Source: Candidatus Nezhaarchaeota archaeon (GTDB lineage Archaea > Thermoproteota > Methanomethylicia > Nezhaarchaeales > WYZ-LMO8). From it: a stretch of 64,000 nt of DNA. Shown here one piece after another: positions 4,191 to 28,216 of the stretch (position 1 is the first letter of the stretch; each line of letters begins with the position of its first letter). Made by a program: the position numbers and the translations under genes. The DNA lies in contig JANXDO010000002.1 of the NCBI GenBank assembly GCA_025059375.1, positions 64,966-128,965 of the forward strand, written 5' to 3'. Under the pieces are notes generated by a model, which saw nothing but the letters and a program-made list of their open reading frames with translations, was not told the origin of the DNA and made no database searches.

Positions 4191-5003
4191 TTGGGGAAGG
4201 TCCTCATAATAGTAGTATTAATGTCACTATTATTAGTGCCTACTCTTCATGCTCAGAACGAGTTTTTGGTTAGATTAGAGGAAAACATAGTGCTAAGCCC
4301 CCGAGATTCGTTAATGGTAGAGGTCCAAGGGAGTGATAGGGTTTTCGTAATGTACCGTCGCGATCCTAATGTCCTTGTCGAGCTAGCTGAGGCTTTTGGG
4401 GCAAGCTTTGAGGGGATTATAATCTTGAGGCTTAACATCTCTAAGTTTAGTGTGATTGATTACGACTTGAGCTTTTACTCCATTAGCCCCTACAACTTAA
4501 CGATATCCAAAATCTCAACAACAGATGGTAAGAGGGTCATAGCCTCGTATGCCTGTCCAGCGGGTGTAACTCTAAGGTTAATTATGGAGCTAACAGCGAC
4601 ACCAGCATCAGGCATTCGAGAACCGAGTATGAGCTCGATACCAGCGAGTTTCTGGCTAATTGACCCATGGAAGTTGCTGGTGTACTGCTTCTTCATATCA
4701 CTATTTGGAGCTACAGCTTTCTTAGATCTTAAAGATATGAAGCGAAAGAAGGCTGGTAGATGGAGCTTGAATGATAGTATTGCCCTAATCTTAAGGTACA
4801 TGTTTTACGCCTTCCTGCTTTCCTTCGTAGCTATAACCATATTGACCTTCGGGATGTTCATTTACTCATCACTGACTGCATTTTCGTTAGAGCTTAAGCT
4901 TGGGGGCTTATTGACGTCCTTAATCATGTTCTTAATTATAGCAATAATTTATGGGTTGGCTCGATGGAGGGGTTGGTATGAGCTTATCGATGAGGAAGAT
5001 TGA
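4191..5003 (+). CDS. secreted/membrane protein with a signal peptide, an ~150-aa extracytoplasmic domain and 3-4 C-terminal TM helices
   Basis: It has a TTG start and an N-terminal MGKVLIIVVLMSLLLVPTLHA signal-like segment. The C-terminal half is hydrophobic. Its 3' end overlaps the start of the next gene. Confidence 0.5.
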   Translation: MGKVLIIVVLMSLLLVPTLHAQNEFLVRLEENIVLSPRDSLMVEVQGSDRVFVMYRRDPNVLVELAEAFGASFEGIIILRLNISKFSVIDYDLSFYSISPYNLTISKISTTDGKRVIASYACPAGVTLRLIMELTATPASGIREPSMSSIPASFWLIDPWKLLVYCFFISLFGATAFLDLKDMKRKKAGRWSLNDSIALILRYMFYAFLLSFVAITILTFGMFIYSSLTAFSLELKLGGLLTSLIMFLIIAIIYGLARWRGWYELIDEED

Positions 5004-7731
5004 GGAGGAGAAGCCTTGGTGGCTTACTAGACCAAAGCTTCGAGCACTCTTATCACTACCATTACACTTAGCTAATAGAGATTATAGGCGATGGAAGAAT
5101 GCTAGGTTGACACCAAAGAAGCTTAAGAAGAGGCTTCACGAGCTTGACAAAAAGTTCCCGAAGAAGAGGGAGGACCTAATTGGAAGGGATAAAGAATTCC
5201 AAGCGATAATGACGGCCATAGCTTACCACGTGATTGAAGATCCTGCTGTGAGAGGATTGTTTAAGGGGGCTCCACCACCAAAGTTCTTCATACTGAAGGG
5301 CTCAACCGGCACTGGGAAATCCATGCTTGCTGAGATTTGTCTTAGAGAGGCTGTAGTTCACGGACTCAGCTTAGGGGTCAATGTCCAACCGATAGTGGTC
5401 AACGCTGATGAAATATTTCACCCACTCTACGGTCAGTCTTTGAGGAACTTGGCAGCAATATTCAAGAGGGCTAAAGACACGCCAAGCGTCATCTTCTTTG
5501 ATGAGTTTCATAGCATAGGCATGAAGGTCGAGAGACCTATGTACGGAGCTGATAGGGAGGACGTGAGGGTTCAAGACGCCTTCATAGAGTACTTAAACAA
5601 GATACTAGACACAAACGAGAGGGTGATCGTGATAGCCGCCACAAATAAGTTTGAAGCGATTAGAGAGGATATTAGGAGGAGAGCCTTTGTCTTAGACTTA
5701 GACCAGAACATTACAAGAGACATGCTACTGGCTGTCTTAAAGGCTGAGTTAAACAAGTATGGATGGACTTATTTAAATCCCGAGGAAGTGATGTCCATCC
5801 TTGAAAAGTCTGTTAGCGCTTATAGACAGACTCAACTCACACCATTTGACATCATAGATGCATGCAACAAGGTTAGATCTAGGAAAGTCGAGCCCGTGAG
5901 GGAAAAGCTATTTAAGAGACTTGGACTTTTACGCGAGGAAGAGTTTTCATACAAAGTCACTATAGATGATTTTAAGCTCGTGGCTAGGGAGCTTAGAGGG
6001 TACGTAGAGCAGGAGAAGAGCACTGAGGTCTTGAGCTCAGTGTTAAAGATAAAGCCGGCTGTGAGCTACAGGGACATTGGGGGACTCTTCGGGATTAAGG
6101 AGAAGATATTCAAGATAATATCGCTAAGCCTCAAGCCTGAGCTTGCAAGCAAACTTAACTGGGTTCCTCCAAAAGGCTTCCTACTTTGGGGGGAGCCTGG
6201 TTGTGGTAAGACCTACTTATCGAAGGCTGTGGCTAAGGAGAATGATGCTACCTTCTTTTACGTGCCAGCAGCCCAACTACTAATTAATGCTAAATGGGTT
6301 GGAGAGCCTGAGAAGAACATAAAGGATCTATTTCAGCTTGCTAGGAGACATGCTCCCAGTATAATATTCTTCGATGAATTCGACGTAATAGCTGGTAAAA
6401 GGAAGGGGGATCCAGTTAGCGATAGACTTACAGCTCAGATACTTACTGAGCTTGATGGTCTGCAGCCCCTTGAAAATGTGATTGTAATAGCCGCAACTAA
6501 CAGGCTTGACGTGATAGATGAGGCGGTTCTAAACAGGTTTGAGCCTTATATAATAGAGGTACCATTACCGAGAAATGATGAGGAAAGGCTTGATGTTATA
6601 AGAGTTCACCTTAGACAATATCTGCCCCACCTCCACGATGAAGTCACTCCTGAGAGGGTCTTGAGCATAATTAAGAGGTTTAGGGTTGTATCACCACGCG
6701 TCGTGGCTGAGGTCATTAAGGAGGCTAATAGGCTTAGAAGTCAGGAGGTTGTGGCAGCTAGCGAATGCGTTAAGGCCCTCTCCATAGGTGATAAGGTGAG
6801 GTTGACTGAGGTAATGGAGATGTATAAAGAGGATCTTGAGAGAATTAGAGAGCTAGTAGGCTCAACGGACATTGAGGTGCTCTCTAAAGTAACTCCGGAG
6901 GTGTATAAGGTAAGGCTGTATCACTTTGAGAAGGCGGCTGAACTTCTAGAACATGAAGTTGACAAGGAGTTAATGGATGCTCAGGAGAGTATGGTAACTG
7001 AGGGGCCTGGTGTAGCGCTGGGATTAGCTACTGATCCGCAGGGTAGGAGGGGTATCCTGTTGATAGTGGAGTGCTCTGTGAAGAAAGGTTCAGGTAAGGT
7101 GCACGTTACGGGCGCTGCAAAGTCGGTTACGATAGCTCCAATGACCTCAGTTGAGGACGTTAGTGTTATTGAGAGTGCTCAGAATGCTGTAGACTACGTA
7201 AAGATGTACGTGGAGGAGAAACTAGGCATAGACTTAAGCGACTACGATTTTAGATTTCAGATTGTAAGTCCTCTCGAAGGAATTCCTGGAGGGGGAGTCT
7301 CTGGTCCAAGCCTAGGATTGACCTTTAGCGTGGCGGCCATATCAGAGTTAGCGGGTCTATCATCAAGCCAATCAGTTGTCATGACTGGTAAGAGCGATAT
7401 AAAGGGTAAGGTTGGACCAGTTGGAGGTTTAGGTTGGAGAGGTGCTGGTAAGATCTTAGCGGCCATAAAGACTAGGAGAATCAAGATTAAGAAGTTCATA
7501 ATGCCTAAGTGGAATTATGAGAATGCTAGAGATGAAGTAAAGGTTCTAGAGGAGGCTGGCATTACGGTAATACCGGTTGAGAGGCAGGTAGAGGCTTGGC
7601 TCCACGCGCTGGATGTAAGTGAGGAGGAAATGCTTGAGAAGATAGCAAAGAATATGAGTGCTAAACAAGCAAACCGGGCAAAGGGGCCTCTTGAGCAGAT
7701 AGGTGAAGATGAAGCCCCACGATCCTATTAG
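4951..7731 (+). CDS. tandem AAA+ ATPase fused to a C-terminal Lon-type (S16) Ser-Lys protease domain
   Basis: Walker A-1 GSTGTGKS (~nt 5299) pairs with Walker B FFDEFHS. Walker A-2 GEPGCGKT (~nt 6190) pairs with Walker B IIFFDEFD and sensor IAATNRLD…NRFE. The C-terminal GGVSGPSLGLT (Ser codon 7309-7311) and VGPVGGLGWRGAGKILAA (Lys codon 7450-7452) match the Lon catalytic dyad context. The start is uncertain (ATG at 4951, 4978 or 4990). Confidence 0.7.
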   Translation: MGWLDGGVGMSLSMRKIEEEKPWWLTRPKLRALLSLPLHLANRDYRRWKNARLTPKKLKKRLHELDKKFPKKREDLIGRDKEFQAIMTAIAYHVIEDPAVRGLFKGAPPPKFFILKGSTGTGKSMLAEICLREAVVHGLSLGVNVQPIVVNADEIFHPLYGQSLRNLAAIFKRAKDTPSVIFFDEFHSIGMKVERPMYGADREDVRVQDAFIEYLNKILDTNERVIVIAATNKFEAIREDIRRRAFVLDLDQNITRDMLLAVLKAELNKYGWTYLNPEEVMSILEKSVSAYRQTQLTPFDIIDACNKVRSRKVEPVREKLFKRLGLLREEEFSYKVTIDDFKLVARELRGYVEQEKSTEVLSSVLKIKPAVSYRDIGGLFGIKEKIFKIISLSLKPELASKLNWVPPKGFLLWGEPGCGKTYLSKAVAKENDATFFYVPAAQLLINAKWVGEPEKNIKDLFQLARRHAPSIIFFDEFDVIAGKRKGDPVSDRLTAQILTELDGLQPLENVIVIAATNRLDVIDEAVLNRFEPYIIEVPLPRNDEERLDVIRVHLRQYLPHLHDEVTPERVLSIIKRFRVVSPRVVAEVIKEANRLRSQEVVAASECVKALSIGDKVRLTEVMEMYKEDLERIRELVGSTDIEVLSKVTPEVYKVRLYHFEKAAELLEHEVDKELMDAQESMVTEGPGVALGLATDPQGRRGILLIVECSVKKGSGKVHVTGAAKSVTIAPMTSVEDVSVIESAQNAVDYVKMYVEEKLGIDLSDYDFRFQIVSPLEGIPGGGVSGPSLGLTFSVAAISELAGLSSSQSVVMTGKSDIKGKVGPVGGLGWRGAGKILAAIKTRRIKIKKFIMPKWNYENARDEVKVLEEAGITVIPVERQVEAWLHALDVSEEEMLEKIAKNMSAKQANRAKGPLEQIGEDEAPRSY

Positions 7732-8515
7732 GATCGTAGCCCAGCGCTAGTGCTATGAATTGCGAGACGTGAAGTATGGGTATCGTCCTCGTCAATTCTT
7801 CAAGCTGTCTTAACTCGTACTGCGTCTTATCGAGAATCAGCATGCAGGCAGGACACATTGTTAGAATCATGTCAGCCCCACTCTCAATAATGCTCGTTAT
7901 TTTTCTCTGTGAGAGCTCAAGCATTATGTGACCAATCCACTTAGCTGCTGGCGCACCACAACAACTATGCTTCTCTTCATAGTCAACTACTTCAGAATTG
8001 AATGCTAAGGCCACGTCTTCAAGTATGTCTTCGCCCTCCTCCCCCCTTAAAGCCCTCCCATGGAGGGCATAGTTATAGTGGCAGCCAACATGCACTGCCA
8101 CCTTCACTTTGCTCATATCCCTCTTTACTTTTCTAGCTAGCTCGTGTCTACTCTGCCATAGTAGTTCAGCTACATGTAGACAACGTGCTCTCACTCCATA
8201 TCTTCTTCTAAACTCTTCAGAGCTCAAAGCCTTATTTAAGGCGAGGTAGCAACCGTTACACGATACGACTATGTAGTCAGGATTTGACATGAGCTTGGCC
8301 ACGTTAAAGCAAACGATTGCGTTCATTTGCTCGGCTTTTGCTATGCCGAGGAGCCCTATGGGTAGCCCGCAGCACAACATGCTGATAGGAAGCTTAGCGT
8401 CGATGCTTAAGAGCCTTAATAGCTCAAGGGTTGACCTCGCTATCCCGGGATATACGTTGATTGACATGCAGCCTGGGTAGTAAGTTACATGGCCCTTAAT
8501 CTCTTTTAGTACCAA
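7661..8515 (-). CDS. hdrB: heterodisulfide reductase subunit B-like (two CCG domains)
   Basis: The CCG-domain Cys patterns YYPGC…CCGLP…CNGC and HVGCH…CCGAP…CPAC are present. It lies adjacent to HdrC. Confidence 0.75.
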   Translation of the reverse strand: MVLKEIKGHVTYYPGCMSINVYPGIARSTLELLRLLSIDAKLPISMLCCGLPIGLLGIAKAEQMNAIVCFNVAKLMSNPDYIVVSCNGCYLALNKALSSEEFRRRYGVRARCLHVAELLWQSRHELARKVKRDMSKVKVAVHVGCHYNYALHGRALRGEEGEDILEDVALAFNSEVVDYEEKHSCCGAPAAKWIGHIMLELSQRKITSIIESGADMILTMCPACMLILDKTQYELRQLEELTRTIPILHVSQFIALALGYDPNRIVGLHLHLSAQEAPLPGLLV

Positions 8516-8915
8516 TGCTCATCACCCTTCTAAGTCTATCCTCAAAGCTTATGGCTTTCATGAAGGCCTTAAGCTCGTCTTTGAATTCTTCAGAAAGCTT
8601 TGGGATGTTGAGTTCTGACTCAGCCTTAAACTCCTTCACCTCATTGCTTACCGGCGGGACTATGACACCCTCATTGAATATAGTCTCAGCGAGGTCCATG
8701 TATAGCTCAACAATCCTCCTTTCACCTCGCTCTTCTAGGACTCGTTCTCTAAGTTCACCTATTATCTCTGGAATCTTTACTGAATTTGGACATCGTGCTT
8801 CACACGTGTGGCATCTCAGGCATAGCCATATGTCACTACCATCCACTGGAACGTCTTGCTTGATGCTGTATACGATGAGCCTCGGGTTAAAGCTCTTAGT
8901 TATCCTCGAGACCAC
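8496..8915 (-). CDS. hdrC: heterodisulfide reductase subunit C-like (4Fe-4S)
   Basis: It carries CLRCHTCEARCP plus a second Cys motif. Its size and position next to HdrB fit. Confidence 0.7.
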   Translation of the reverse strand: MVSRITKSFNPRLIVYSIKQDVPVDGSDIWLCLRCHTCEARCPNSVKIPEIIGELRERVLEERGERRIVELYMDLAETIFNEGVIVPPVSNEVKEFKAESELNIPKLSEEFKDELKAFMKAISFEDRLRRVMSIGTKRD

Positions 8916-9007
8916 GCAAGCTGATGTACAGCTGCCACACTGAATACACTTCTTAGACTCTGAAAACAGTAGGTTTATAATAGTTTGACACCTCCTAAGC
9001 TATTCTC

Positions 9008-9358
9008 GTGAGCTTGGAGCTCAAGCTGTTGTTGGATAGATTCCATGACTTTGAGAAGGCTAAGCGCTTAGGATCCTTGAGTGGAGAGTACCTGAAGGAG
9101 GCCTCTACTATATACTTGAGTAGAGATGATGCAGAGGTACTCGGAGTATCTGAGGGGGACGTTGTTGAAGTGGTATCAGGAAACCGCTTAATTAGGGTTC
9201 GAGTTAGGGTTGATGAAGGTATCAAGAAGGGTTTCGCGTTTATGCCCCCCAGCCCAATGTCAATTGCCCTATTTGATTCGAGTAGGCAGCCATTAATCGT
9301 TAAGGTCTCAAGGTCCACGGGAGAGCCTACGGAGTTACTCACAATTCTACCTCCTTAA
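9008..9358 (+). CDS. fwdD: formylmethanofuran dehydrogenase subunit D-like molybdopterin-dinucleotide-binding domain protein
   Basis: VSEGDVVEVVSGNRLIRVRVRVDEGIKKGFAFMP is typical of the MopB C-terminal/FwdD domain. The antisense ORF 8995..9342 is S/T-rich low-complexity and was judged spurious. Confidence 0.6.
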   Translation: MSLELKLLLDRFHDFEKAKRLGSLSGEYLKEASTIYLSRDDAEVLGVSEGDVVEVVSGNRLIRVRVRVDEGIKKGFAFMPPSPMSIALFDSSRQPLIVKVSRSTGEPTELLTILPP

Positions 9359-10654
9359 TTTTGATAGTACCTCATCAATCCTACCCCTCTCAAAAGCGAC
9401 CCTCCCATGGACTGTGTTCACTAGGCTCTTAAGCCTCTCAATAGCATTAACCGCCTTATTGAACCCCCTAGACATAAGGGGTTTGGGCAGTGGCGGTGGA
9501 GGGGTAATCTCAACCCTCTCAACTTTAATAGCTCTGTAGTACACGGCTGGCTTAGGAGACTTATAGTTAGTGAGCATTCTCTTAAAGTACTCGTAGCTCA
9601 TGTTGAACCACAACACACTTGAATCCTCAAACCTTAAGTCACTCCTCGCTACTCTAATGGCATTAACTGGGCAAGCTTTCTCGCATGCTCCACAGTAAAT
9701 GCAGTAGTCCTTGACGAATAACATCTTGTCTAGTGATGGGGGTTTAGCGACGTACACTACATTAGTGGGGCATATGTTTATGCAATTCTTACAGCCAGAC
9801 GGATCACAGTTGTTTGGTTGAACCATGTATACGTCCCCCTTAAATTGCTTCTCGACCTTTATTGCCCCTACAGGACATAGAGTGCATAAACCGCACCAAA
9901 CGCATTTTTCTTCGTCTACATCTATTGATCCATCGACTTCAGGTTCACATACTTCTCTAGGAGCTGCTTCCTTACACTCAACTTTGATCGCCTTTACTGG
10001 GCATATCTTTTCACAGAGTCCGCAGTAATCGCATTTACTCTCATCAACCAACACGGCTACTCCTAGCTTGAAGTGTGGAGGTTTGGATTGAGTCCACTCT
10101 ATCTTTATTGCATCGCAAAGAAGCTCACATAGACCACAGTAGCAACACTTTCCAAGGTCTATGGTTATCGTGCCTATTCCCCCCACCTTGCCCTCCTCAA
10201 GATACTTCACAAGCTTGCTCTTCTTCTTGATGTTGATGTTGACCCTTATTGCTCTCCTCGGGCATATCTTCTCACAGAATAGGCATGGAATGCACTTTTC
10301 GCGATCTACCACCATGTTTCCCTTGACCCTCGGATGAGGGAAGTCTGCCTTAAGGGTGAGCTTTAAAGCTTTAGAGGGGCAAACAGATGAGCATAGGGGG
10401 CAAGCGATACACTTTGTCTCATCTATAATTATATATGGAGCCTCCACCCTCCCTGACGCTATGTCCTTAACTGGACCCATTGATATTGCCTTGACTGGAC
10501 AGACGATCTCACAGAGCCCACATCCAAAGCACTTATCAGTGTGGTATGAAAGCTTCTTCTCTAATACTGGAGCTAGCCACCTATAATTGATGGTCTTGCC
10601 CTCCAACTCTAACTTAGATTGTGGCTTCACAATCTTCAAGAGCTTACACCTCAA
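9347..10654 (-). CDS. polyferredoxin with eight [4Fe-4S] motifs (FwdF/MvhB-like)
   Basis: Eight CxxCxxCxxxCP-type motifs are present (CFGCGLCEIVCP, CIACPLCSSVCP, CIPCLFCEKICP, CDYCGLCEKICP, CIYCGACEKACP and others). Confidence 0.8.
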   Translation of the reverse strand: MRCKLLKIVKPQSKLELEGKTINYRWLAPVLEKKLSYHTDKCFGCGLCEIVCPVKAISMGPVKDIASGRVEAPYIIIDETKCIACPLCSSVCPSKALKLTLKADFPHPRVKGNMVVDREKCIPCLFCEKICPRRAIRVNINIKKKSKLVKYLEEGKVGGIGTITIDLGKCCYCGLCELLCDAIKIEWTQSKPPHFKLGVAVLVDESKCDYCGLCEKICPVKAIKVECKEAAPREVCEPEVDGSIDVDEEKCVWCGLCTLCPVGAIKVEKQFKGDVYMVQPNNCDPSGCKNCINICPTNVVYVAKPPSLDKMLFVKDYCIYCGACEKACPVNAIRVARSDLRFEDSSVLWFNMSYEYFKRMLTNYKSPKPAVYYRAIKVERVEITPPPPLPKPLMSRGFNKAVNAIERLKSLVNTVHGRVAFERGRIDEVLSKLRR

Positions 10655-13028
10655 ATTCCGAGCCTATTGGCCCCAGCTTAGTTACCTTCTCAACGAACAT
10701 AGTTACTAGTTCAGCTATTCTCTTGCCCTCTGATGCCGAGGCTCCATCGATCATCAGCCTTTCAGGGCTTATACCAACACTCTCTAAAAGCTTTTTAAGA
10801 GCTTTAACCCTCTCGTTAGCCTTTAATCTACCAACTCTATAGTGGCAGTCCTGCTCGTAGCAGCCCAAAATCATGACCCCATCAGCTCCAAGCTTAAGTG
10901 CTTCAAGAATGTGGTCTGGAGATACTCTTGCACTACATGGGACCCTTATGACCCTGACGTTCGTTGGGTATGCAATTTTGTTTAAGCCAGCATTGTCGGC
11001 GGCTGCATAGCTACACCACATGCATGTGAAGGCCACTATTAAGGGATACTCGCTCTTACTTAGTAGGAGGGCCTTCAGCATAGCTGATATCTGCTCATTA
11101 GTTAAGTAGCCAGGTGGTATTAGGGCCCCAGCTGGACATGCAGCTAAGCAGGAACCACAACCTCTACACGCAACGTCATAGACCTCAATTTCACCCCTAC
11201 CCGCTTTCAAGGCTCCAAATGGACATGCTCCAACACAGTTGAAGCATAGCTTACACCTTGACTTATCTATGGTGGGGGCGTAGACCTCAATCTCTACCTT
11301 GCCCCTACCTAGGAATTCAGCCACTCTCGACGCAGCTAAGCCAGCTTGAGATACAGTCTCCGTTATGTCCTTAGGGCCAGTGCACGCGCCAGCAACATAG
11401 ATTCCCTTACTAAAGGTATCGGCTGGATTGAGTTTAAGGTGGTATTCAGCTAGGAAACCATCCTCACTTAAGTGGATGCCCATCATTGATGCCAGTTCCC
11501 TAATACCATCGGGAGGCTCCATACCTACAGCCAGGACCACGAGGTCGAAGTCCTCCTCCTTAAACTTGCCGTCCATGATGTCCTCGTAGAAAACCCTAAG
11601 CTTACCGTCCTTAGTCCTCCTGATCTCACCGACCCTGCTCTTCACGAAGTTGACCCCCATGTCCATAGCGCGCCTATAAGCCTCTTCAGATAGTTTTCCG
11701 GAGGCCCTGACGTCAATGTAGAAGATTGCTATGTGGGTCTCGGGTACAGTTAGCTTCGTTTGAATTGCTTGCTTAATTGCGTAGTTGCAGCAGACCCTAC
11801 TACAGTATACATGGCCGATTCTATCGCTTCTACTACCAACACATTGGATGAAAGCGATCCTCTTCGGAGGGGTTCCATCTGATGGCCTGACAATCCTACC
11901 TCTCGTGGGTCCTGTGCTATTGAGCATTCTTTCGTACTCAGGACCCGTCACAACGTCGAGGAACCTGCCATAACCATACTCCTCCATCCCTCTAGGATCA
12001 AATGGCCTAAACCCTACAGCAACTATTATGGCTCCAACCTTAAACTTCATTACCTTGTCCTCATCCCTAAAGTTTATGGCCTTAGGCTCGCAGACGCCCA
12101 AGCAGGAGTAGCAGCCAATGCAGCTCTTTATGTCGATATATGGGGCGTGCGGAACGCTTTCAGGTGATGGTTTGACTATAGCGCTTCTAAATCCAATGCC
12201 ATAGTCGTACTCGTTGGGGATCTTTATTGGACAAACTTCCAAGCACTTATTACACCCGGTACAGAGCTTTTCATCAATATACCTCGCCCTCCTAAGGATC
12301 TCGACGTCATAACTGCCCGGCATGCCTCTAACAGATCTAACTTCACTTAATGTTAGGACCTCTATGTTTGGGTGGTTGTAGGCTTTTGAGAGTTGGGGGC
12401 CAAGGACACATATGCTGCAATCGATAGTTGGGAAGACCTTATCCCACTTTGCCATGTGACCGCCTATGAAGCCTTCCTTCTCCACTAAGTACACCTTGAA
12501 GCCCATGTCAGCCAGTAGTAGAGCAGCCGTGACTCCAGCAACGCCTCCGCCTATCACCATGACGCTCTTCTCGGCATGCATGCTTACAGTCCTCGCTGGA
12601 ATAGCATGTGGAGCAGCAGCCAATGCCATCTCTATGAGGTCCATTGCCTTAACTGTGGCTCTTTCAGGGTCGTGATAGTGAACCCACGCACATTGTTCTC
12701 GAATGTTAACTATCTCCACGTAACCTCGATTTAACCCGACCTCCTCAGCTGTCTTCTTAAATAGCTCTCCGTGGAGCGATGGAGTGCAGCAAGCAACTAT
12801 TAACCTCGAAGCTTTCTCCTCCACTACAGTCTCCTTTATCCTCCTTAACCCATCATCACTACAGCAGTGTTCATGTTCCTTCACTACCACGTTACTTCTC
12901 CCTGAAAAGTGTTTGAGAAGCCTCTCGACATCTACCACCCCAGCGATATTGGTTCCACACCTACAGACGAAGAGAACCAACTTGCCCTCGCCACTTAGAT
13001 CTGATGAAGCGCTGCTCGACTGCGACAT
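10644..13028 (-). CDS. hdrA: heterodisulfide reductase subunit A with a fused C-terminal MvhD-like domain
   Basis: The FAD/NAD Rossmann motif VMVIGGGVAGVTAALLLA, multiple 4Fe-4S motifs and the HdrA thioredoxin-like N-terminus are present. The C-terminal …FTCMWCSYAAADNAG…VPCSARV…ILGCYEQDCHYR matches MvhD. Confidence 0.8.
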   Translation of the reverse strand: MSQSSSASSDLSGEGKLVLFVCRCGTNIAGVVDVERLLKHFSGRSNVVVKEHEHCCSDDGLRRIKETVVEEKASRLIVACCTPSLHGELFKKTAEEVGLNRGYVEIVNIREQCAWVHYHDPERATVKAMDLIEMALAAAPHAIPARTVSMHAEKSVMVIGGGVAGVTAALLLADMGFKVYLVEKEGFIGGHMAKWDKVFPTIDCSICVLGPQLSKAYNHPNIEVLTLSEVRSVRGMPGSYDVEILRRARYIDEKLCTGCNKCLEVCPIKIPNEYDYGIGFRSAIVKPSPESVPHAPYIDIKSCIGCYSCLGVCEPKAINFRDEDKVMKFKVGAIIVAVGFRPFDPRGMEEYGYGRFLDVVTGPEYERMLNSTGPTRGRIVRPSDGTPPKRIAFIQCVGSRSDRIGHVYCSRVCCNYAIKQAIQTKLTVPETHIAIFYIDVRASGKLSEEAYRRAMDMGVNFVKSRVGEIRRTKDGKLRVFYEDIMDGKFKEEDFDLVVLAVGMEPPDGIRELASMMGIHLSEDGFLAEYHLKLNPADTFSKGIYVAGACTGPKDITETVSQAGLAASRVAEFLGRGKVEIEVYAPTIDKSRCKLCFNCVGACPFGALKAGRGEIEVYDVACRGCGSCLAACPAGALIPPGYLTNEQISAMLKALLLSKSEYPLIVAFTCMWCSYAAADNAGLNKIAYPTNVRVIRVPCSARVSPDHILEALKLGADGVMILGCYEQDCHYRVGRLKANERVKALKKLLESVGISPERLMIDGASASEGKRIAELVTMFVEKVTKLGPIGSEFEV

Positions 13029-13039
13029 CTCTATGCCCT

Positions 13040-14281
13040 CTATACGGAGTTTATGAGTCGGCTTATGAGTTCTTCCTCACTGATCAACCCTTCCCTCGCC
13101 TTCATGAATGGTCTAAGCTCTACATCCACTCCATCGGTCCTAGTAACCTTGCCCCCGGCTTCAATCCCTAGTGCTGCTACCGGTATGGCTATGCTTGAGT
13201 AGTATTGAGTTAAGCTCTTTAGTTCTGTTGTACAAGCCAGCTTGCCTTTAAGGCTTATAGCAAGTTGAGGTGAGGTTTGAGCTACTATGTCACTATTGAC
13301 GGCAAGCACAAAGTCCACGCTACCTCGTGATATTAAGTCGTAAGCTGACTTAGTGCGCTCCTTAACTTTGAAGTCGTATGGATCGCATAAGCCCAATTTC
13401 GTGTACGTTACTTTGGCTTGACCATAGGAGTTCAAACTCTCAGCTAGTGGGTGAAGTGAGCATATACCCTCCTCACACAATCTCTTCGCCAATTTAACTA
13501 TCTCCTTAACGCTCTCCTCGTAGTTCTCACATCTTAAAACGCTATCCCCAACGAACATAGCCGTGAAAAATGCTCTCTTCAAGTCAGAGACAAGTAAGAA
13601 GACTTGCCTAGCAAATTCAAGCGAGGTGCTTGGCGCTCGCCCATCGAGAGCTTCTCTAATTGCCTTTGCTAACTCGGAGTCTCTACATGGCTCTACCACT
13701 ACTTTATGTTGAGCGATCTTCATGCTCGCTGATTCCCTGACGTCTATCATGGCTACAATCCTGCTTTCCCTCCCCATCTTTGCTGCAATTCCCCGCGGCA
13801 TAACTGTATATTTGCTCGCATGCCTCAAGTGAGTATCAGCGACGCTAGCACCCCAGTACAGTATGAAGTCAGCTGCATTCAATATCTCTGTAAAGCTGAG
13901 ATCCTTAACTTCAAAGCTCCTCTGAATAGGTGTCATCACCCTACATATTGATGGTGGGGCATCATAGACAGCATTAAGCTTTTCAGCAAGCTCTAAGCAC
14001 AATTCAATTACTCTATTACTTGAGCACTCTCCACCATAGATTAGAGGCTTTTTAGCAGACCTAAGCTTCTTTATCAACAACTCTACACTCTTGTCTATGT
14101 CGACTTCCAAACCATTTGCGAGGGCTGATTTAGGTCTATTCTCGTTAAGCCCTTTAAATCTGGCATTTCCGTGACTACATGCCCCCCATGTCTTAGTTAT
14201 GACGTTACCGTCAACCTCGACATCAACATCATCGCAAAGAAGTGAGCAGCCCGTGCATATGACATTTTCAATCTTCATCAT
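13040..14281 (-). CDS. fwdB: formylmethanofuran dehydrogenase subunit B-like Mo/W-bisPGD protein
   Basis: The N-terminus MMKIENVICTGCSLLCDDVDVEVDGNVI…GACSHGNARF matches the FwdB/FmdB signature (CxxCxxxCDD). Its 413-aa size fits. Confidence 0.7.
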   Translation of the reverse strand: MMKIENVICTGCSLLCDDVDVEVDGNVITKTWGACSHGNARFKGLNENRPKSALANGLEVDIDKSVELLIKKLRSAKKPLIYGGECSSNRVIELCLELAEKLNAVYDAPPSICRVMTPIQRSFEVKDLSFTEILNAADFILYWGASVADTHLRHASKYTVMPRGIAAKMGRESRIVAMIDVRESASMKIAQHKVVVEPCRDSELAKAIREALDGRAPSTSLEFARQVFLLVSDLKRAFFTAMFVGDSVLRCENYEESVKEIVKLAKRLCEEGICSLHPLAESLNSYGQAKVTYTKLGLCDPYDFKVKERTKSAYDLISRGSVDFVLAVNSDIVAQTSPQLAISLKGKLACTTELKSLTQYYSSIAIPVAALGIEAGGKVTRTDGVDVELRPFMKAREGLISEEELISRLINSV

Positions 14282-14667
14282 GCCACCACTTTAATTGCAC
14301 CGCTATAGCAAACAAGTTCACAGACATTACAGTTTGTCCTTGATGGAGGATAGCGCCTACACTTCCTTAGATTTAGCACCCTTACTCTACCATCTTCAAT
14401 CGTCCATAGAGCATCCGGGCTCTTAGAGTTGTTACCTTTAGCGGATTTGGGGTCGAGGATAACGTTCTCAGGGCATGCTACTATACAGTTCCCACATCCA
14501 ATACACTTATTCGGGTCTATTTCAACTAGAGTTTCAACGGCTGAGAGCAGGGGGGCTAAGAGCTCTCTAAGCTTTGTAAGCTTATCAGCATAGCGAGCAT
14601 CAGTGATGAGGGGGAGGCAATCCTCAATCTTGGCTTGCTTGGTTATTAACTTAAAGGCAAAGCCCAT
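14278..14667 (-). CDS. 2x[4Fe-4S] ferredoxin (FwdG-like)
   Basis: It carries CIGCGNCIVACP plus CNVCELVC. It overlaps fwdB by 4 nt. Confidence 0.55.
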   Translation of the reverse strand: MGFAFKLITKQAKIEDCLPLITDARYADKLTKLRELLAPLLSAVETLVEIDPNKCIGCGNCIVACPENVILDPKSAKGNNSKSPDALWTIEDGRVRVLNLRKCRRYPPSRTNCNVCELVCYSGAIKVVA

Positions 14668-14857
14668 ACAAGTCGTACCGCACTTCCCACAATTAATTGC
14701 AGGTAGGAATCCATAAACCTGTAGAGGAGAGATTCTACTAGACAGAGCCTAAACCCCCATTACTTGCTTTGAGCTTTGAAGCTACGATTTAAGGGCTTTT
14801 CGGAGAATTAGAGTTGCTTAGAAATTGTAATAATGATTATGTTGGGCGCTAATGTTG

Positions 14858-15259
14858 TCATGATTCGCTGCTTTGAAGCCTCTTCCTAACCTCAGTGAAG
14901 TCTTGGTTCAGAGCTTCAAGCACCCTCTTGCATATCGAATTTAAGACTTCTTGAATACTTCTTTTAAGTCTTTCAGGTTCAATAGCTTCATACTTGTAGT
15001 AGTATCCTCCCCTCTCGATTATGTGAGGCTTTCTCACCAAGAGGCCCATATTGGTAAGCTTTATTGCTATTCTATAGGCAGTCGGCTTACTTTTCCTTAG
15101 AGCTTCAGCTAATTCCTCGACCGTCATGGGCTTCTCGAGAATTGTGAAGTAAGCCCTTATCTCATCTCGATTTAATCCGAGGAGGCACTCCATGACGTCT
15201 TCGATGGATACCCTTGATGTAAGGGTCTTTAACTTGAGAGGTTTTAAGCCCTCGAGCAA
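14858..15259 (-). CDS. winged-helix transcriptional regulator (TrmB/MarR-like)
   Basis: The HTH segment MTVEELAEALRKSKPTAYRIAIKLTNMGLL is present in a 133-aa protein. Confidence 0.5.
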   Translation of the reverse strand: MLEGLKPLKLKTLTSRVSIEDVMECLLGLNRDEIRAYFTILEKPMTVEELAEALRKSKPTAYRIAIKLTNMGLLVRKPHIIERGGYYYKYEAIEPERLKRSIQEVLNSICKRVLEALNQDFTEVRKRLQSSES

Positions 15260-18001: not shown

Positions 18002-18883
18002 TTAATGCGTTTTAGTTATGAAGACATCGGCACACACGTAGGTCTTTAATGGAGATACCGACCTCACTACCCTACTCGATGTCATGAGCCACCTCACATT
18101 TAAGCTGTCAAGAACCTTCGATAGCCTACACTTTAGGTATTCCTCCACATCACTTCCACGATGTGCGGTATCGTAGTAGTGAATGTATCCTTCAAGCTTT
18201 AACGCCTCGATAGCCTTAGCCAAGTGGTCAATGGCATGCTCGGGTGAAGGCATCAAAACTCTATTAGCAATGCCCTTAAGCCTATACGTCTCAATAACTT
18301 GGGAGGCATCGCCAAATATTGGTATTACTTTATCCTCTACACGATTTAGCTTTATGTTCTCCACCATAAGGTTGTAAGCACTAGGGTTTACATCTATGGA
18401 GTAAATCTTAACGTCTGGAACCTTCTTCGCTATGACTATTGAGAATGGCCCCACCCCTGCAAACATGTTAATTATGACTTCTCCCGGCTTAACCATGCTT
18501 GCTATTCTCAGTCTTTCATATTGAAGCCTAGAGGTAAAGAACACCTTAGATATATCGACTTTAAACACACAACCGCTCTCCCTATGTATTGTTTCAAGTC
18601 CTCCACTACCTGCTAAGATCTCATAGCTATGGACTCTCTCAGGGTCCTTTGCCGGTGACGTTCTCCTTACGATGAGTCTAACCTTGGGCTTTAAGCTATT
18701 TAGTATCGCTTCAGCAAGCTTAAACCTATATGTCTCCAGCTTACTAGATAGATTCAAGATAGCTATGTCTCCTATTAGTTCAAAGCCGCTGGGGACTGAA
18801 TCGAGAAGGTGTGGTGGAACTATCTCCTTCGCCAGTCTCCTCAGTAAACCTTCTCTAGGCATGCTTTTGGTCTTAGCCTCCAA
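18002..18883 (-). CDS. class I SAM-dependent tRNA methyltransferase of the Trm5/TYW2 family
   Basis: INMFAGVGPFSIVIAKK…IDVNPSAY matches the Trm5/TYW2 motif. It overlaps the upstream radical SAM gene by 11 nt. Confidence 0.65.
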   Translation of the reverse strand: MEAKTKSMPREGLLRRLAKEIVPPHLLDSVPSGFELIGDIAILNLSSKLETYRFKLAEAILNSLKPKVRLIVRRTSPAKDPERVHSYEILAGSGGLETIHRESGCVFKVDISKVFFTSRLQYERLRIASMVKPGEVIINMFAGVGPFSIVIAKKVPDVKIYSIDVNPSAYNLMVENIKLNRVEDKVIPIFGDASQVIETYRLKGIANRVLMPSPEHAIDHLAKAIEALKLEGYIHYYDTAHRGSDVEEYLKCRLSKVLDSLNVRWLMTSSRVVRSVSPLKTYVCADVFITKTH

Positions 18884-20345
18884 CCTTAGCTAGATAAGGT
18901 ATGCTCAATGCCCTCTCAACAATGGGCCTGTGAATGCTATTGTAAGTACAGAAGGGTCTTATAGTTCCATCAGGCAAGGCGTAGTGTATGCAGCACCTCT
19001 CAACTCTCTCAAGGTCAAAGTTGTAAGGATCCATGAAGTGCATACACCCTAAGAGCACCATCCTCCTCATCAATTGACCTAAAGCATCATACGAACCTTT
19101 AATGAATACACTTAATAAGCTCCTCCTCAGCTTGCCCTTGATGTTGCGGCTTGCTAGGAGTAGCTTCAAATAAGCTCTAAGCCTCTTGCCCTTAGATGCT
19201 AGATTATGAACCTCCCAAAAGTCGCTTGCAAGCTTGTCGACATCAGCATACTTGGTTATAGGAGTTATGCTGCCATCATCCTCTACTAAGAAAAATGTAG
19301 CTACACCACAGTGTGGATGAGCTGTGAACTCCGGGTACTTCCTTCCCTTAATGGCTCCAACAGCCCTAGCCATTGCTACCGGCCAAGGGACGGGCCTAAA
19401 GTCTAACACCCTAATTGCTCCTCCAGTTTGCTCCTCGCACAGCTTCATGAAGTCCGGTATCGTTATTCTCATTTTCTCCCTCTCCTCCCTGTTTATTCTC
19501 CCGGTTATGGATACAGGCTGAACATTAATTCCCCTAACGACATCACAGTTCTTGGCTGCGAACCTTATGATGTCGCCCACCTGATGATCGTTTACCCCCT
19601 TAACCAAGGTTACTACGAGAACTATGGAGTCATGGCCCAGCTTTCGGGCATTCTCTACGACTTTAAACTTTATGTTCGTCAGAGGGACACCTCTAGTCTT
19701 AATGTAAATGTCATCTGTTAAACCATCGAACTGAAGATATACTGTTGACATTCCAGCGTCAAGCAGGCTCTTATAGAAGTTTATGTCCTTAGCAAGGAGG
19801 ATCCCATTACTGTTTACCTCAACGTGTCTAAAGCCCTCCTTCTTAGCCATGGAAATTAGGTCGGGCAGGTCCCTTCGAAGTGTTGGCTCTCCACCTGAAT
19901 ATTGAAGTGCTGCTGGAGGTAGAGGTTTCAGCTCCCTAAGGTTCTTAAGCATCCGTCCTACCTGCTCCTGAGTCGGCTCATATAGGTACCCAATAGCCCC
20001 GGCATGAGCAAAACATATTGGGCAATTAAGGTTGCACCTATTCGTTACATCAATTATAGCGAGGACTGTGCATGTCCTATGCCTTTCACATAAACCACAA
20101 TCATATGGACAGCCTCTTTCACTCCTCCTTTGTGGGTTCTTCACCCCTTCCCCCACGATCTCCCACTTCTCTGCTTCACGGTAAAGCTCATAGTCGCCCC
20201 AGTACACATCAGTGAAGTCTCCATGTTGAGGACAAGACTTAGAAATATAAACGCGATTATTGTCTTCGTACACTATAGCATCCACAACTTGCAAGCACTC
20301 TGGGCACAAACTCTTCGTCTTCTTTATTAGCTCCAATAGCATCAC
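18873..20345 (-). CDS. radical SAM enzyme with an N-terminal Cys-rich ribbon (paralog A); family uncertain
   Basis: The N-terminus has CPEC…CPQHG, then CPYDCGLCERH, then the canonical CNLNCPIC radical SAM motif. It is 490 aa and is paralogous to 26823..28181. Confidence 0.7.
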   Translation of the reverse strand: MMLLELIKKTKSLCPECLQVVDAIVYEDNNRVYISKSCPQHGDFTDVYWGDYELYREAEKWEIVGEGVKNPQRRSERGCPYDCGLCERHRTCTVLAIIDVTNRCNLNCPICFAHAGAIGYLYEPTQEQVGRMLKNLRELKPLPPAALQYSGGEPTLRRDLPDLISMAKKEGFRHVEVNSNGILLAKDINFYKSLLDAGMSTVYLQFDGLTDDIYIKTRGVPLTNIKFKVVENARKLGHDSIVLVVTLVKGVNDHQVGDIIRFAAKNCDVVRGINVQPVSITGRINREEREKMRITIPDFMKLCEEQTGGAIRVLDFRPVPWPVAMARAVGAIKGRKYPEFTAHPHCGVATFFLVEDDGSITPITKYADVDKLASDFWEVHNLASKGKRLRAYLKLLLASRNIKGKLRRSLLSVFIKGSYDALGQLMRRMVLLGCMHFMDPYNFDLERVERCCIHYALPDGTIRPFCTYNSIHRPIVERALSIPYLAKVGG

Positions 20346-20615
20346 CGAGGACCTTCTAGCAGTTAAAGCTGTTTTGCCAATATTTCACTATAAATTTTAT
20401 CTGAGAAATTGCGAGATGCGAAACTCTTAAATAGCAAGGTTAAAGCTCCAGCGACTCATTAACCACTCTGTTTAAGGTGCTGGTTAAGGAGGCTTGCAAG
20501 GTCCTATTGACTGAGGTGTTTAAACCTGGACTTGAGGGATGTAACTGACCTGAAAGCCAAGGATTTAACTTACTCTTTTATTACACGTCATCTGTTCTTA
20601 CGATACGGTGATTGG

Positions 20616-20849
20616 ATGAGGATAATAACAGTAAAGATGCCTGAAGCGTATCTAAGGGATCTAGATGAGCTAGTTAAGTCTGGAGCATACCCCTCAAGAA
20701 GTGAGGCTATAAGAGCTGCCGTGAAGGAGCTTTTAGGGAAGGAGCTGTATAGATCAATTGATGACAGAGCCTTAAAGAAAAAGCTTCAGAGTGAATTTAA
20801 GCATTCGTCGAAGCACTACGGCTTTGGCTGCCGACCACCCGATCACTGA
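20616..20849 (+). CDS. ribbon-helix-helix (CopG/NikR-like) transcriptional regulator
   Basis: MRIITVKMPEAYLRDLDELVKSGAYPSRSEAIRAAVKELL is a typical RHH. I chose the internal ATG at 20616 over the longer ORF. Confidence 0.55.
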   Translation: MRIITVKMPEAYLRDLDELVKSGAYPSRSEAIRAAVKELLGKELYRSIDDRALKKKLQSEFKHSSKHYGFGCRPPDH

Positions 20850-20916
20850 CAGTGCTCGATCGTGAAGAGTTAAGCTATATTAAGGTACCCCTATCTACCT
20901 CTATCCCGGATGAGGT

Positions 20917-21726
20917 ATGCATCCTCAGAGCATATTTTCCATGCTCTACACGCCCGGCAGAAACTTAGGGATACTTTACATAGAGGCTTCTGCTGGGCTA
21001 AGCATTAAAGAGCTTACAAGTATACTTAGAGAGCTTGATAAGTATGGTGCAATAATTTTTAGAGGCTTATATCACGAAGAACGGGTTAATGAAGCTAGAA
21101 AGACGTACTTGTGCATGGTCTGCGATCTGACCTCCTCTAAGCACCCACTTGAGGAGGTAGCATCATCTATTAATAAATTGCCAGGTATTAAGAGCGTTGA
21201 AGTGGTAAAACCAGAGACACCAGGCTTCATAGTTGATGAAAGGCATTACCCCCTAATAGTGGTTGATGAAAGAGCTTTAATATTTAGGATAGAGACGTTC
21301 AACGTCATGCTTCTTGGCATAAGACAAAAGTGGGGGGCTACAGGTCAAGTCTTCCTGTACTACTTAGGTTATGAGGGAGGTATAGGAGCAGCCAAGTTCT
21401 ACAAGAGGGTTTCCGACTTACCGCCGAATGAAGCGATAAAAGCTGCGCTTAAAGTGGCAACAGCTCATGGGCTTGGCAAGTTTGAAGTAATAGATCTTGA
21501 CATGGAAAGACCATACGTAGTAGTCAGAGTTTATGATTTGTTCGAGTGCATACCCATGAAGGGTAAAAGCGATCAACCATTTAGTGAATTCTATAGAGGA
21601 CTATTATGTGGAACGCTAAGCGAACTACTTGGAGTAAAGCTTAGAGCTGAGGAAAGAGCTTGCGTAGCCAAGGGAGATCCTTACTGCGAGTTCGTGTTGA
21701 TGAAGGAGGAGGTTGCGGAAGCTTAA
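20917..21726 (+). CDS. ACT-like + V4R-domain protein (paralog A)
   Basis: It carries the V4R signature GQVFLYYLGYEGG and the C-terminal CVAKGDPYCEF. Confidence 0.55.
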   Translation: MHPQSIFSMLYTPGRNLGILYIEASAGLSIKELTSILRELDKYGAIIFRGLYHEERVNEARKTYLCMVCDLTSSKHPLEEVASSINKLPGIKSVEVVKPETPGFIVDERHYPLIVVDERALIFRIETFNVMLLGIRQKWGATGQVFLYYLGYEGGIGAAKFYKRVSDLPPNEAIKAALKVATAHGLGKFEVIDLDMERPYVVVRVYDLFECIPMKGKSDQPFSEFYRGLLCGTLSELLGVKLRAEERACVAKGDPYCEFVLMKEEVAEA

Positions 21727-28181: not shown

Positions 28182-28216
28182 TGCGCCAAGCTATAGCTAA
28201 CTCAATATTTAAGCTT

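Follow-up and report, generated by a model that had tools for sequence, protein, structure and literature searches.

An HdrABC gene cluster of a Candidatus Nezhaarchaeota archaeon most likely links a soluble bifurcase to a diverged FwdB2/FwdD2 pterin module

A 64-kb stretch of DNA from a Candidatus Nezhaarchaeota archaeon (contig JANXDO010000002.1; here called the window) carries a seven-gene cluster at 7661-14745 in which genes for a heterodisulfide reductase (Hdr) stand among genes resembling fwdB, fwdD and fwdF. The question raised by this locus is whether these genes encode one electron-bifurcating machine and, if so, what its pterin subunit does. We examined the window by Pfam and NCBIfam profile searches, by alignment to PDB chains, and by means of a BLAST synteny table. 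The cluster most likely encodes a soluble HdrABC bifurcase wired to a FwdB2/FwdD2 module by an eight-cluster polyferredoxin and a three-cluster ferredoxin. Six of the genes lie on the minus strand, in the transcription order ferredoxin, fwdB-like, hdrA-mvhD, polyferredoxin, hdrC and hdrB, and the seventh, the fwdD-like gene, is encoded on the plus strand, flanked by the polyferredoxin gene and hdrC. The seven genes, with their coordinates and order, had been given in an initial annotation of this DNA and were confirmed by their Pfam and NCBIfam domains (Table 1). That annotation had also described overlaps of 4-12 nt. Overlaps of 4 nt (ferredoxin/fwdB), 11 nt (hdrA/polyferredoxin) and 12 nt (the convergent polyferredoxin and fwdD genes) were indeed found, but hdrC and hdrB overlap by 20 nt, and between fwdB and hdrA there is no overlap but a gap of 11 nt. 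All of the NCBIfam scores fell under the equivalog cut-offs, and the cluster proteins are therefore diverged relatives rather than textbook members of their families.

As judged from its sequence, the HdrABC that the cluster encodes is complete and belongs to type Ia (HdrA2). HdrABC was considered complete because the bifurcation residues of HdrA, a fused MvhD, and all of the CCG cysteines of HdrB are present. The HdrA fusion contains a flavin adenine dinucleotide (FAD)/thioredoxin-reductase-like core, an N-terminal domain, inserted and C-terminal ferredoxin domains, and a C-terminal MvhD domain ([2Fe-2S]); the fusion of MvhD to the C-terminus of a full five-domain HdrA is the arrangement of type Ia. 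The FlpD domain was matched at residues 664-786 (1.6e-48), and the C-terminal ~130 aa (residues 661-789) align with MvhD chains from 9sw2, 5odc and 7bkb. Among solved bifurcating chains, the HdrA of 8rvu scored 636 bits and 5odc_A scored 617 bits. The counterparts of E356 and K409 (M. wolfei numbering), named as key for bifurcation (PMC12054007), are kept, the ERM and CCNYAIK motifs are conserved, and the cysteines include four CxxCxxCxxxC motifs together with N-terminal and central cysteines. Alignment of HdrB to 5odc_B and 9sfi_C demonstrated that all ten CCG cysteines for two non-cubane [4Fe-4S] clusters are kept (C16, C48-C49, C86, C89; C145, C185-C186, C221, C224). HdrC contains the motifs CIQCGSCTSAC and CLRCHTCEARCP.

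The FwdB-like protein, a predicted W/Mo-bisPGD subunit, carries an N-terminal [4Fe-4S] motif, CTGCSLLCDD...C35 (C9, C12, C16 and C35). Its Cys113 aligns with Cys118 of 5t5i_B and with the selenocysteine (Sec) of 9sfi_Q, and the ligand position that the initial annotation had proposed for checking is therefore occupied by Cys, not Sec. The pterin-region motifs HxRHxS..PRG, SD and G..G..R.DG are kept. An AlphaFold2 model (pLDDT 89) had 5t5i_B as its top Foldseek match (TM 0.89), with FhcB (TM 0.66) and FdhH ranking under FwdB. The PDB alignments also revealed two substitutions in the active site, His119 being replaced by Arg114 and Arg288-Gly289 by Ala280-Glu281, such that the window's protein reads SIC-R and PL-AE-SLN (PLAESLN) in contrast to the canonical SVC-H and PM-RG-HYN (PMRGHYN). 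Within the clade of the window's protein, Ala-Glu hardly varies at this position. Arg288 and His119 were present in every canonical FwdB/FmdB compared; the corresponding C/U-H and R-G-H are found in all three canonical PDB sequences and in canonical-type (SVCHG/RGH) gammaproteobacterial homologues, and the two residues are regarded as belonging to the active site shared by FDH and FMD (PMC11656701). The label FwdB given earlier is supported by the MopB fold, the [4Fe-4S] motif and the Cys ligand, but it covers a distinct FwdB2 paralog that scores under the TIGR03129 cut-off, gives no match to PF00384, and lacks Arg288 and His119.

The FwdB-like protein belongs to a paralog family distinct from canonical FwdB, known from the fwdG2B2D2 genes of Methanosarcina. 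All FwdB2 proteins compared have the CTGCSLLCDD N-terminal motif and no Arg288. In a crude neighbour-joining tree the FwdB2 proteins lie apart from canonical FwdB; the tree is without support values and holds only three canonical sequences, reconstructed from PDB alignments, and is to be read as a paralog split rather than a proper phylogeny. A scan of 1.84 billion representatives recovered only 756 superfamily clusters, and residue states were scored in the best 127 of these. Within these best 127, the ligand Cys occurred together with Arg288 in 19 clusters, most of them with full SVCHGP and PMRGH[YF]N, and together with Ala at the Arg288 position in 11, seven of which had the full SIC[RHQK] and P[LMI]AExxN of the window's clade; the ligand Cys is gone from many others. 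The residue following the ligand Cys is R, H, Q or K within the Thermoproteota/Asgard clade of the window, and may also be F or L in Methanosarcinales. FwdB2 of the Methanothrix type has Ser in place of the ligand Cys (SSYSQG) in 17 of ~31 loci, also without Arg288 (L030, L034-L044, L050 and L054; Methanothrix/Methanocrinis), and copies from Thor- and Helarchaeota have neither the ligand Cys nor Arg288. The FwdB2 paralog family seems, from these comparisons, to have repeatedly lost or changed its metal site. A literature search on the function of FwdB2/fwdG2B2D2 yielded a 2010 expression study and nothing else.

The FwdD-like protein is a MopB domain IV beta-barrel, with FwdD chain 9sfi_S as its closest solved chain (1.9e-4). 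A domain IV partner for the pterin, as found in Fwd/Fmd, is accordingly encoded, with cofactor binding predicted; FwdA and FwdC, which are encoded with B and D in Fwd/Fmd, were found neither in the window nor beside the orthologous clusters. Opposite-strand fwdD genes were seen in Nezhaarchaeales, Baldrarchaeota, Bathyarchaeia, Methanomethylicia and Kor-like loci, and the ferredoxin, B and D genes of Methanosarcinales are co-directional. Counted over the TACK/Asgard loci with a detected fwdD-like open reading frame (ORF) (L001-L020 and L080), fwdD runs opposite to the polyferredoxin gene in 16 of 17, with L080 as the exception. A minus-strand ORF at 8995-9342, antisense to fwdD, was rejected as an artefact, being of low complexity and having no domain. 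The TATA-like box TTTATAATA, which runs across the start codon of hdrC on the opposite strand, suggests a promoter for a near-leaderless fwdD transcript, and is here treated as a predicted element.

The polyferredoxin contains the eight [4Fe-4S] motifs that had been counted initially: six of the form CxxCxxCxxxC, one CVWCGLCTLCP and one Cx4CxxCxxxCP. Its PDB matches were 9sw6_H (4.8e-54), 5t5i_F, 9sfi_T and 7bkb_K. The protein ends in a Cys-free extension of ~100 aa (residues 335-435) that is absent from solved FwdF/FmdF; its TACK/Asgard homologues likewise reach ~430-450 aa, with a C-terminus ~100 aa longer than that of FwdF. These proteins share one conserved loop Cys (C227) at the place where Group-1 FmdF has a CxxC pair. 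In Group-1 FmdF, the loop CxxC builds the bridging FF9 cluster, and the protein is tetramer-forming and belongs to a C2 supercomplex (PMC13580544). The window's polyferredoxin does not have the two loop cysteines of Group 1; Cys236, nine residues past C227, is unique to the window's copy. The single loop Cys places these polyferredoxins among the uncharacterised FmdF groups of PMC13580544. The small ferredoxin had been described as FwdG-like, a description that does not hold for its extended form. In that form a PF04060-type domain (CGKCGTTC...C) precedes a 2x[4Fe-4S] domain, and the N-terminus matches the gamma subunit of acetyl-CoA decarbonylase/synthase (1.5e-14) and RnfB. This CdhE/RnfB-type match makes the ferredoxin a three-cluster protein rather than a canonical two-cluster FwdG. 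Identity of the N-terminal domain to CdhE was 35-56% over all loci and 44-51% in Nezhaarchaeales, and the ferredoxin gene precedes the FwdB2-type gene in 55 of 61 loci (FwdB2 score of at least 100 bits).

A potential concern with the analysis of HdrC and the ferredoxin is the position of their start codons. The first cluster motif of HdrC, CIQCGSCTSAC, is encoded in frame upstream of the listed GTG, and the start is probably an ATT at 8981-8979, located 7 nt after a AGGAGGTG box at 8996-8989. HdrC translated from this ATT has 161 aa and aligns over both clusters with 5odc_C (1.9e-16), and its orthologue in another locus (L002) also has 161 aa and both clusters. Loss of a cluster from HdrC, as considered for the listed ORF of 139 aa, was dismissed once the upstream frame supplied this motif. 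Similarly, the N-terminal FeS domain of the ferredoxin, CGKCGTTC...C, is encoded upstream of the listed ATG; its start is probably a CTG at 14745-14743, 7 nt after GGGGGT, with the ATG ORF being a truncation, and the orthologue in L002 has TTG at the codon aligned with this CTG. Both the ATT and the CTG lie 7 nt past strong Shine-Dalgarno-like boxes (8979-8996 and 14743-14758, both minus strand). Standard ORF calling shortens both genes, dropping one whole Fe-S cluster from each protein. The truncations of hdrC and the ferredoxin gene appear on this evidence to be artefacts of ATT and CTG start codons.

To place the cluster among its relatives, we combined a scan of GTDB representatives with the BLAST synteny table. 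The host genome itself is not in the scanned set, and the best match there is 60% identical. The FwdB-like protein is 100% identical to proteins in three Ca. Nezhaarchaeota metagenome-assembled genomes (MAGs), and it is 56-60% identical to those of other Nezhaarchaeales, the nearest being a Guaymas MAG. The gene order is kept in seven Nezhaarchaeales loci. It is identical in WYZ-LMO8 (L006) and five further Nezhaarchaeales loci, with cimA and a TrmB/Lrs14-like regulator upstream where the contig extends; the TrmB-like regulator is syntenic in six of the seven loci, and the seventh contig (L008) ends at fwdB. In the window, this regulator gene lies immediately upstream of the cluster and, from its position, may control it. 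Baldrarchaeota and three Methanomethylicia-type MAGs have the core of ferredoxin, FwdB2, HdrA/MvhD and polyferredoxin with hdrCB, an antisense fwdD being detected in three of the four (not in L013). The same core without hdrCB was found in Culexmicrobium (Culexarchaeia), a Bathyarchaeia MAG, a Kor-like Thermoproteota and another MAG. In Thorarchaeota, Methanosarcina sp. Ant1 and Methanosalsum, ferredoxin-FwdB2 stands beside a divergent hdrA2-polyferredoxin pair, and in Methanothrix, Methanosarcina and Methanoperedens ferredoxin-FwdB2(-FwdD) occurs alone. The same gene order is present in at least 10 independent genomes from several phyla, which puts the arrangement far beyond chance; chance co-location of the genes was ruled out by this synteny.

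In other lineages the module lies beside carbon-fixation genes. In seven non-Nezhaarchaeales lineages (L003/L012, L011, L014, L016, L019, L020 and L047) the module directly abuts cdhABCDE, the genes of carbon monoxide dehydrogenase (CODH)/acetyl-CoA synthase (ACS), together with cooC, and in Baldrarchaeota ftr is also adjacent. The module there neighbours the genes for the Wood-Ljungdahl pathway's other CO2-reducing enzyme. The cdh operon of L003 ends with fwdD, and a CdhE-like ORF lies ~9 kb upstream in several Methanothrix loci.

This type of cluster is not new. Kohtz et al. (Sci Adv 2025; PMC12700198) described a 'Fwd-Hdr' cluster in the cultured Ca. Methanonezhaarchaeum fastidiosum YNP3N and reported it within the expressed energy metabolism. 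YNP3N is a methanogen with a separate, expressed FwdABCD, having fused BD, encoded elsewhere, and with neither FdhAB nor MvhAG next to its soluble hdrABC; its Fwd-Hdr was proposed to couple formate oxidation with reduction of both heterodisulfide and ferredoxin (PMC12700198). The same study found that two sister families within the Nezhaarchaeia lack methyl-coenzyme M reductase (MCR) with the Wood-Ljungdahl pathway kept, the pathway being present in all three families. The YNP3N cluster resembles that of the window in having FwdB, FwdD, FwdF and FwdG with HdrABC and without FwdA/C, and both come from the same taxonomic order. WYZ-LMO8, the genome that gives its family its name, is identical to the window in synteny, including cimA and the trmB-like gene, with protein identities of 50-78%; the window organism belongs to a different lineage from YNP3N. 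By orthology, the window cluster is a further member of the published Fwd-Hdr type, and the idea of a bifurcating Hdr with a stand-alone FwdBD has previously been proposed for the YNP3N orthologue (PMC12700198). What is new here is the set of active-site substitutions in a FwdB2-type paralog, the wider TACK/Asgard spread beside CODH/ACS, and the ATT and CTG starts; the account of Fwd-Hdr in PMC12700198 makes no mention of the missing Arg/His, of the antisense fwdD, or of the distribution beside cdh. The initial annotation had reached a similar reading, a bifurcating Hdr module coupled to a split FwdBD. Its modules are indeed homologous and the HdrA and HdrB residues kept, and the interpretation is largely sound, but it is already in the literature and its over-simple 'FwdB' label hides an altered active site.

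Comparison with better characterized systems supports a modular organization of the cluster. The likeness to Hdr/Fmd supercomplex modules pointed out initially is borne out by PDB matches (7bkb, 9sfi, 9sw6, 5t5i and 5odc) for HdrA, HdrB, HdrC, MvhD, FwdB, FwdD and FwdF. The Fdh-Hdr-Fmd assembly from M. hungatei (7bkb) and the Mvh/Elp-Hdr-Fmd complexes of M. marburgensis (9sw6, 8rvu) contain HdrABC, MvhD, an FmdF-type polyferredoxin and an FmdBD-type module, all with homologues in the window, and wire low-potential electrons directly to the CO2-reducing site. Unlike these complexes, the window cluster encodes no FmdA/C, FdhAB, MvhAG or ElpAB; MvhD is fused to HdrA, the polyferredoxin has the C-terminal extension and no Group-1 CxxC pair, and FwdB is missing the Arg288 and His119 of FmdB. 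The HdrA2B2C2 system of M. acetivorans with polyferredoxin MA2867 also has a HdrA-MvhD fusion followed by a polyferredoxin gene (PMC5296606, PMC2838876). However, HdrA2 is ~44% identical to the window's protein, hdrB2C2 is unlinked in Methanosarcina, and no link to FwdG2B2D2 has been reported. The fwdG2B2D2 genes of Methanosarcina and Methanothrix share with the window CTGCSLLCDD, the preceding CdhE/RnfB-type ferredoxin, FwdD, and the lack of A/C and Arg288 (PMC2838876), but differ in their identity of 28-31%, in having the three genes co-directional, and in lying mostly outside hdr clusters in Methanosarcinales.

We tentatively favor, at somewhat less than even confidence, a model in which HdrABC bifurcates electrons, the pterin module lies on the low-potential output side and reduces CO2, and HdrBC reduces heterodisulfide. 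Placement on the output side is favored because of the homology to solved supercomplexes, every subunit having its closest solved relatives among the Hdr-Fmd/Fwd supercomplexes (7bkb, 9sfi, 9sw6, 5t5i, 5odc and 8rvu), and because of the cdh/ftr neighbourhoods. In those supercomplexes the donors Mvh, Fdh and Elp dock via an MvhD-type subunit, and the low-potential electron travels from HdrA along FmdF/MvhB polyferredoxins to FmdBD (PMC13580544, PMC12350162). In the model, a two-electron donor would reduce the FAD of HdrA, either coenzyme F420 in its reduced form (F420H2) directly, as in Methanosarcina acetivorans, or an unlinked donor acting on the fused MvhD; HdrA2 with fused MvhD uses F420H2 or ferredoxin with no extra subunits in that organism (PMC5296606). 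The high-potential electron would pass through HdrC to the non-cubane clusters of HdrB and on to heterodisulfide (CoM-S-S-CoB if the host is a methanogen). The low-potential electron would pass through the ferredoxin domains of HdrA, the polyferredoxin and the small ferredoxin to the [4Fe-4S] cluster of FwdB and the pterin metal, at which CO2 would be reduced to formate, to be released or passed to separately encoded FwdA/C. The electron chain is probably reversible. Gene content, motif integrity, orthology and synteny are direct observations; formation of the complex, direction of the electrons, the donor and the substrate of the pterin site are predictions of the model.

Several points weigh against this favored model. 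The missing Arg288 and His119 mean that CO2/formate chemistry at the FwdB-like site is not assured; every NCBIfam score lies under its curated family cut-off; and neither a donor module nor FwdA/C is encoded near the cluster. With fwdD transcribed from the other strand, stoichiometric amounts of its product cannot be taken for granted. In addition, the sole published proposal runs the opposite way, with formate as the donor.

In that proposal, FwdB2D2 would be a stand-alone formate dehydrogenase whose electrons pass via FwdG and FwdF to HdrA, and from there to heterodisulfide and ferredoxin, replacing the missing FdhAB/MvhAG donor. Kohtz et al. advanced it for the orthologous cluster of YNP3N, which lacks FdhAB/MvhAG and has a separate canonical FwdBD (PMC12700198); the cluster encodes no other donor, and the formate/CO2 and ferredoxin potentials are close, such that the wire could run both ways. 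We consider it rather unlikely, given that the solved complexes have the donor entering via MvhD and the FmdF-type polyferredoxin on the output side (PMC13580544, PMC12350162), that the active site is without the Arg/His pair of formate dehydrogenase, and that in other lineages the module stands beside the CO2-fixation genes cdh and ftr, not beside formate transporters. An ordinary Fwd in pieces, with FwdB2/D2/F/G joining FwdA and FwdC encoded elsewhere and the hdr adjacency only mirroring the methanogen supercomplex, is the least probable of the explanations considered, and quite improbable in itself. Such an arrangement would draw on a Wood-Ljungdahl pathway conserved in all three Nezhaarchaeia families, and the placing of fwdA/C elsewhere, raised as an alternative by the initial annotation, is the documented situation in the closest studied relative, YNP3N, with its separate FwdABCD (PMC12700198); clustering of hdr with fwd genes is known from Methanocella and other methanogens (PMC12054007). 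But YNP3N has its own fused FwdBD beside FwdA/C (PMC12700198), FwdB2 is a separate clade with a different active site, and FwdA/C was beside FwdB2 in none of the genomes examined in the synteny comparison.

A further explanation is that FwdB2D2 has been remodelled, either converting another substrate in an Ala-Glu pocket that holds a Cys-ligated W/Mo, or serving only in electron transfer or as a scaffold, with the Hdr-polyferredoxin part feeding, for example, CODH/ACS. Conservation within the window's clade speaks for a metal site in working order: Cys113, the Ala-Glu pair and the motifs of the pterin region show strong conservation, a FwdD-like domain IV, which is required for holding the pterin, is always there (PMC11656701), and the fold is nearest to true FwdB (TM 0.89), not to FhcB (0.66). 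Across the paralog family as a whole, however, Arg288 is missing throughout, the post-Cys residue varies (R/H/Q/K; F/L in Methanosarcinales), and the Cys itself is lost in about half of the Methanothrix-type loci (17 of ~31) and in some Asgard members. There are precedents for MopB proteins without pterin in FhcB (6s6y), ElpA of Elp-Hdr (PMC12350162) and the 'Molybdop' clade (PMC12054007). The N-terminal domain of the ferredoxin is 35-56% identical to CdhE, and the module abuts cdh in the seven lineages noted above. The Methanosarcina fwdG2B2D2 genes, described by Rohlin and Gunsalus as having no A/C, are poorly expressed and have no known function (PMC2838876). On balance we regard remodelling as a minority explanation, somewhat improbable. 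A more specific version, in which FwdB2/FwdD2 is not a CO2/formate enzyme and the Cys-ligated W/Mo-pterin with its Ala-Glu pocket belongs to an ancient TACK/Asgard module, tied functionally to CODH/ACS, that also includes a bifurcase of the HdrA2 type, the extended polyferredoxin and the CdhE-like ferredoxin, seems unlikely. If it were true, the module could carry out a new low-potential C1 or sulfur reaction, or deliver electrons directly to acetyl-CoA synthesis.

Table 1. Features of the window, and CODH/ACS genes adjoining the module in other loci (coordinates of the latter refer to the locus named)
Feature	Coordinates	Strand	Remarks
hdrB	7661-8515	-	284 aa; two CCG domains, PF02754 4.7e-26, two stretches; NCBIfam HdrB 123 bits (cut-off 345)
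hdrC	8496-8981 (ORF as listed 8496-8915, 139 aa)	-	161 aa from probable ATT start; two [4Fe-4S] motifs; NCBIfam HdrC 49 bits (cut-off 160)
TATA-box-like element TTTATAATA	8974-8982	+	~30 nt upstream of fwdD GTG; read from sequence
fwdD-like	9008-9358	+	116 aa; GTG start; PF01568 Molydop_binding 6e-10; FwdD NF042908 2.4e-5, 24 bits (cut-off 175)
Polyferredoxin, FwdF/FmdF-type	9347-10654	-	435 aa; top NCBIfam model FwdF NF042909, 245 bits (cut-off 375)
hdrA-mvhD fusion	10644-13028	-	794 aa; top NCBIfam model NF040770 HdrA2, 968 bits (cut-off 1100); FlpD/MvhD domain 1.6e-48
fwdB-like	13040-14281	-	413 aa; TIGR03129, 242 bits (cut-off 328)
Three-cluster ferredoxin	14278-14745 (ATG ORF 14278-14667)	-	155 aa extended (probable CTG start); FeS domain + 2x[4Fe-4S]
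TrmB/Lrs14/Sta1-family helix-turn-helix regulator gene	14858-15259	-	immediately upstream of cluster
AAA+/Lon-like gene	4951-7731	+	926 aa
Tetraether lipid synthase Tes	18873-20345		NCBIfam 635 bits, above cut-off; V4R gene 20917-21726
Molybdopterin oxidoreductase	23707-26334	-	875 aa
TrsS/Tes-like radical-SAM	26823-28181		under both cut-offs; V4R gene 28217-28942
Aldehyde:ferredoxin oxidoreductase and 4Fe-4S ferredoxin	33275-35472	-	
CofE	45901-46659	-	
FrhB/FpoF-like flavoprotein	52254-53327	-	
LarB-like and LarC-like genes	56890-58904	+	
CODH/ACS genes, L003/L012	15267-21257		
CODH/ACS genes, L011	16786-21278 and 7055-7969		
CODH/ACS genes, L014	6856-12091		
CODH/ACS genes, L016	9046-15005		
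CODH/ACS genes, L019 and L020	1-5254		
CODH/ACS genes, L047	8311-10689		

The rest of the window was also surveyed (Table 1). None of the ~70 ORFs scanned gave a match to an Mcr, Mvh or Cdh domain, to the amidohydrolase domain of FwdA or to the GXGXG domain of FwdC, in agreement with the initial statement that FwdA, FwdC and mcr are absent. Use of F420 by the organism is indicated by a gene for F420 gamma-glutamyl ligase (CofE) and one for an F420-binding Fe-S flavoprotein of the FrhB/FpoF-like kind, which stands alone and has a 2x[4Fe-4S] domain at its N-terminus; this flavoprotein is a candidate for the entry of F420H2 into Hdr-type complexes. The molybdopterin oxidoreductase has an N-terminal Fe4S4 and scored 246 bits as Fdh-alpha, 245 as dimethyl sulfoxide (DMSO)-reductase type II and 217 as PhsA, all far under the cut-offs; it is not beside hydrogenase or hdr genes, and its exact sequence is absent from the protein collection searched. 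A second tungstopterin enzyme encoded in the window is an aldehyde:ferredoxin oxidoreductase, whose gene adjoins one for a 4Fe-4S ferredoxin. Two paralogous radical S-adenosylmethionine (SAM) genes with an HMPTM-type zinc ribbon each lie beside a V4R-domain gene (18873-21726 and 26823-28942). A role for the two in methanopterin biosynthesis was considered; NCBIfam identified them as Tes and Tes/TrsS-like, and this hint of tetrahydromethanopterin (H4MPT) was dropped. The 926-aa protein has two AAA+ modules (CDC48/PAN-like) and a C-terminal Lon-protease-like domain, and the 3' end of its gene overlaps that of hdrB convergently by 71 nt. A LarB-like aminoimidazole ribonucleotide (AIR) carboxylase gene beside one for a LarC-like nickel-insertion protein represents nickel-pincer cofactor genes.

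To our knowledge, structures of electron-bifurcating Hdr supercomplexes come from Euryarchaeota only. Hdr complexes from TACK archaea have been explicitly called for as a test of how these machines evolved (PMC13580544), and clusters of the window type are an obvious TACK candidate, with a cultured relative that expresses one. The predicted complex would be unusually compact, having no FmdA/C and a fused MvhD. Should the host belong to one of the Nezhaarchaeia families without MCR, the intact HdrBC would act on a disulfide other than CoM-S-S-CoB. Because the Arg/His pair is missing and the module lies beside CODH/ACS in many uncultured lineages, the published assignment to formate oxidation deserves a direct test, and its outcome is relevant to the question of how archaea outside the classical methanogens provide their Wood-Ljungdahl pathway with low-potential electrons.

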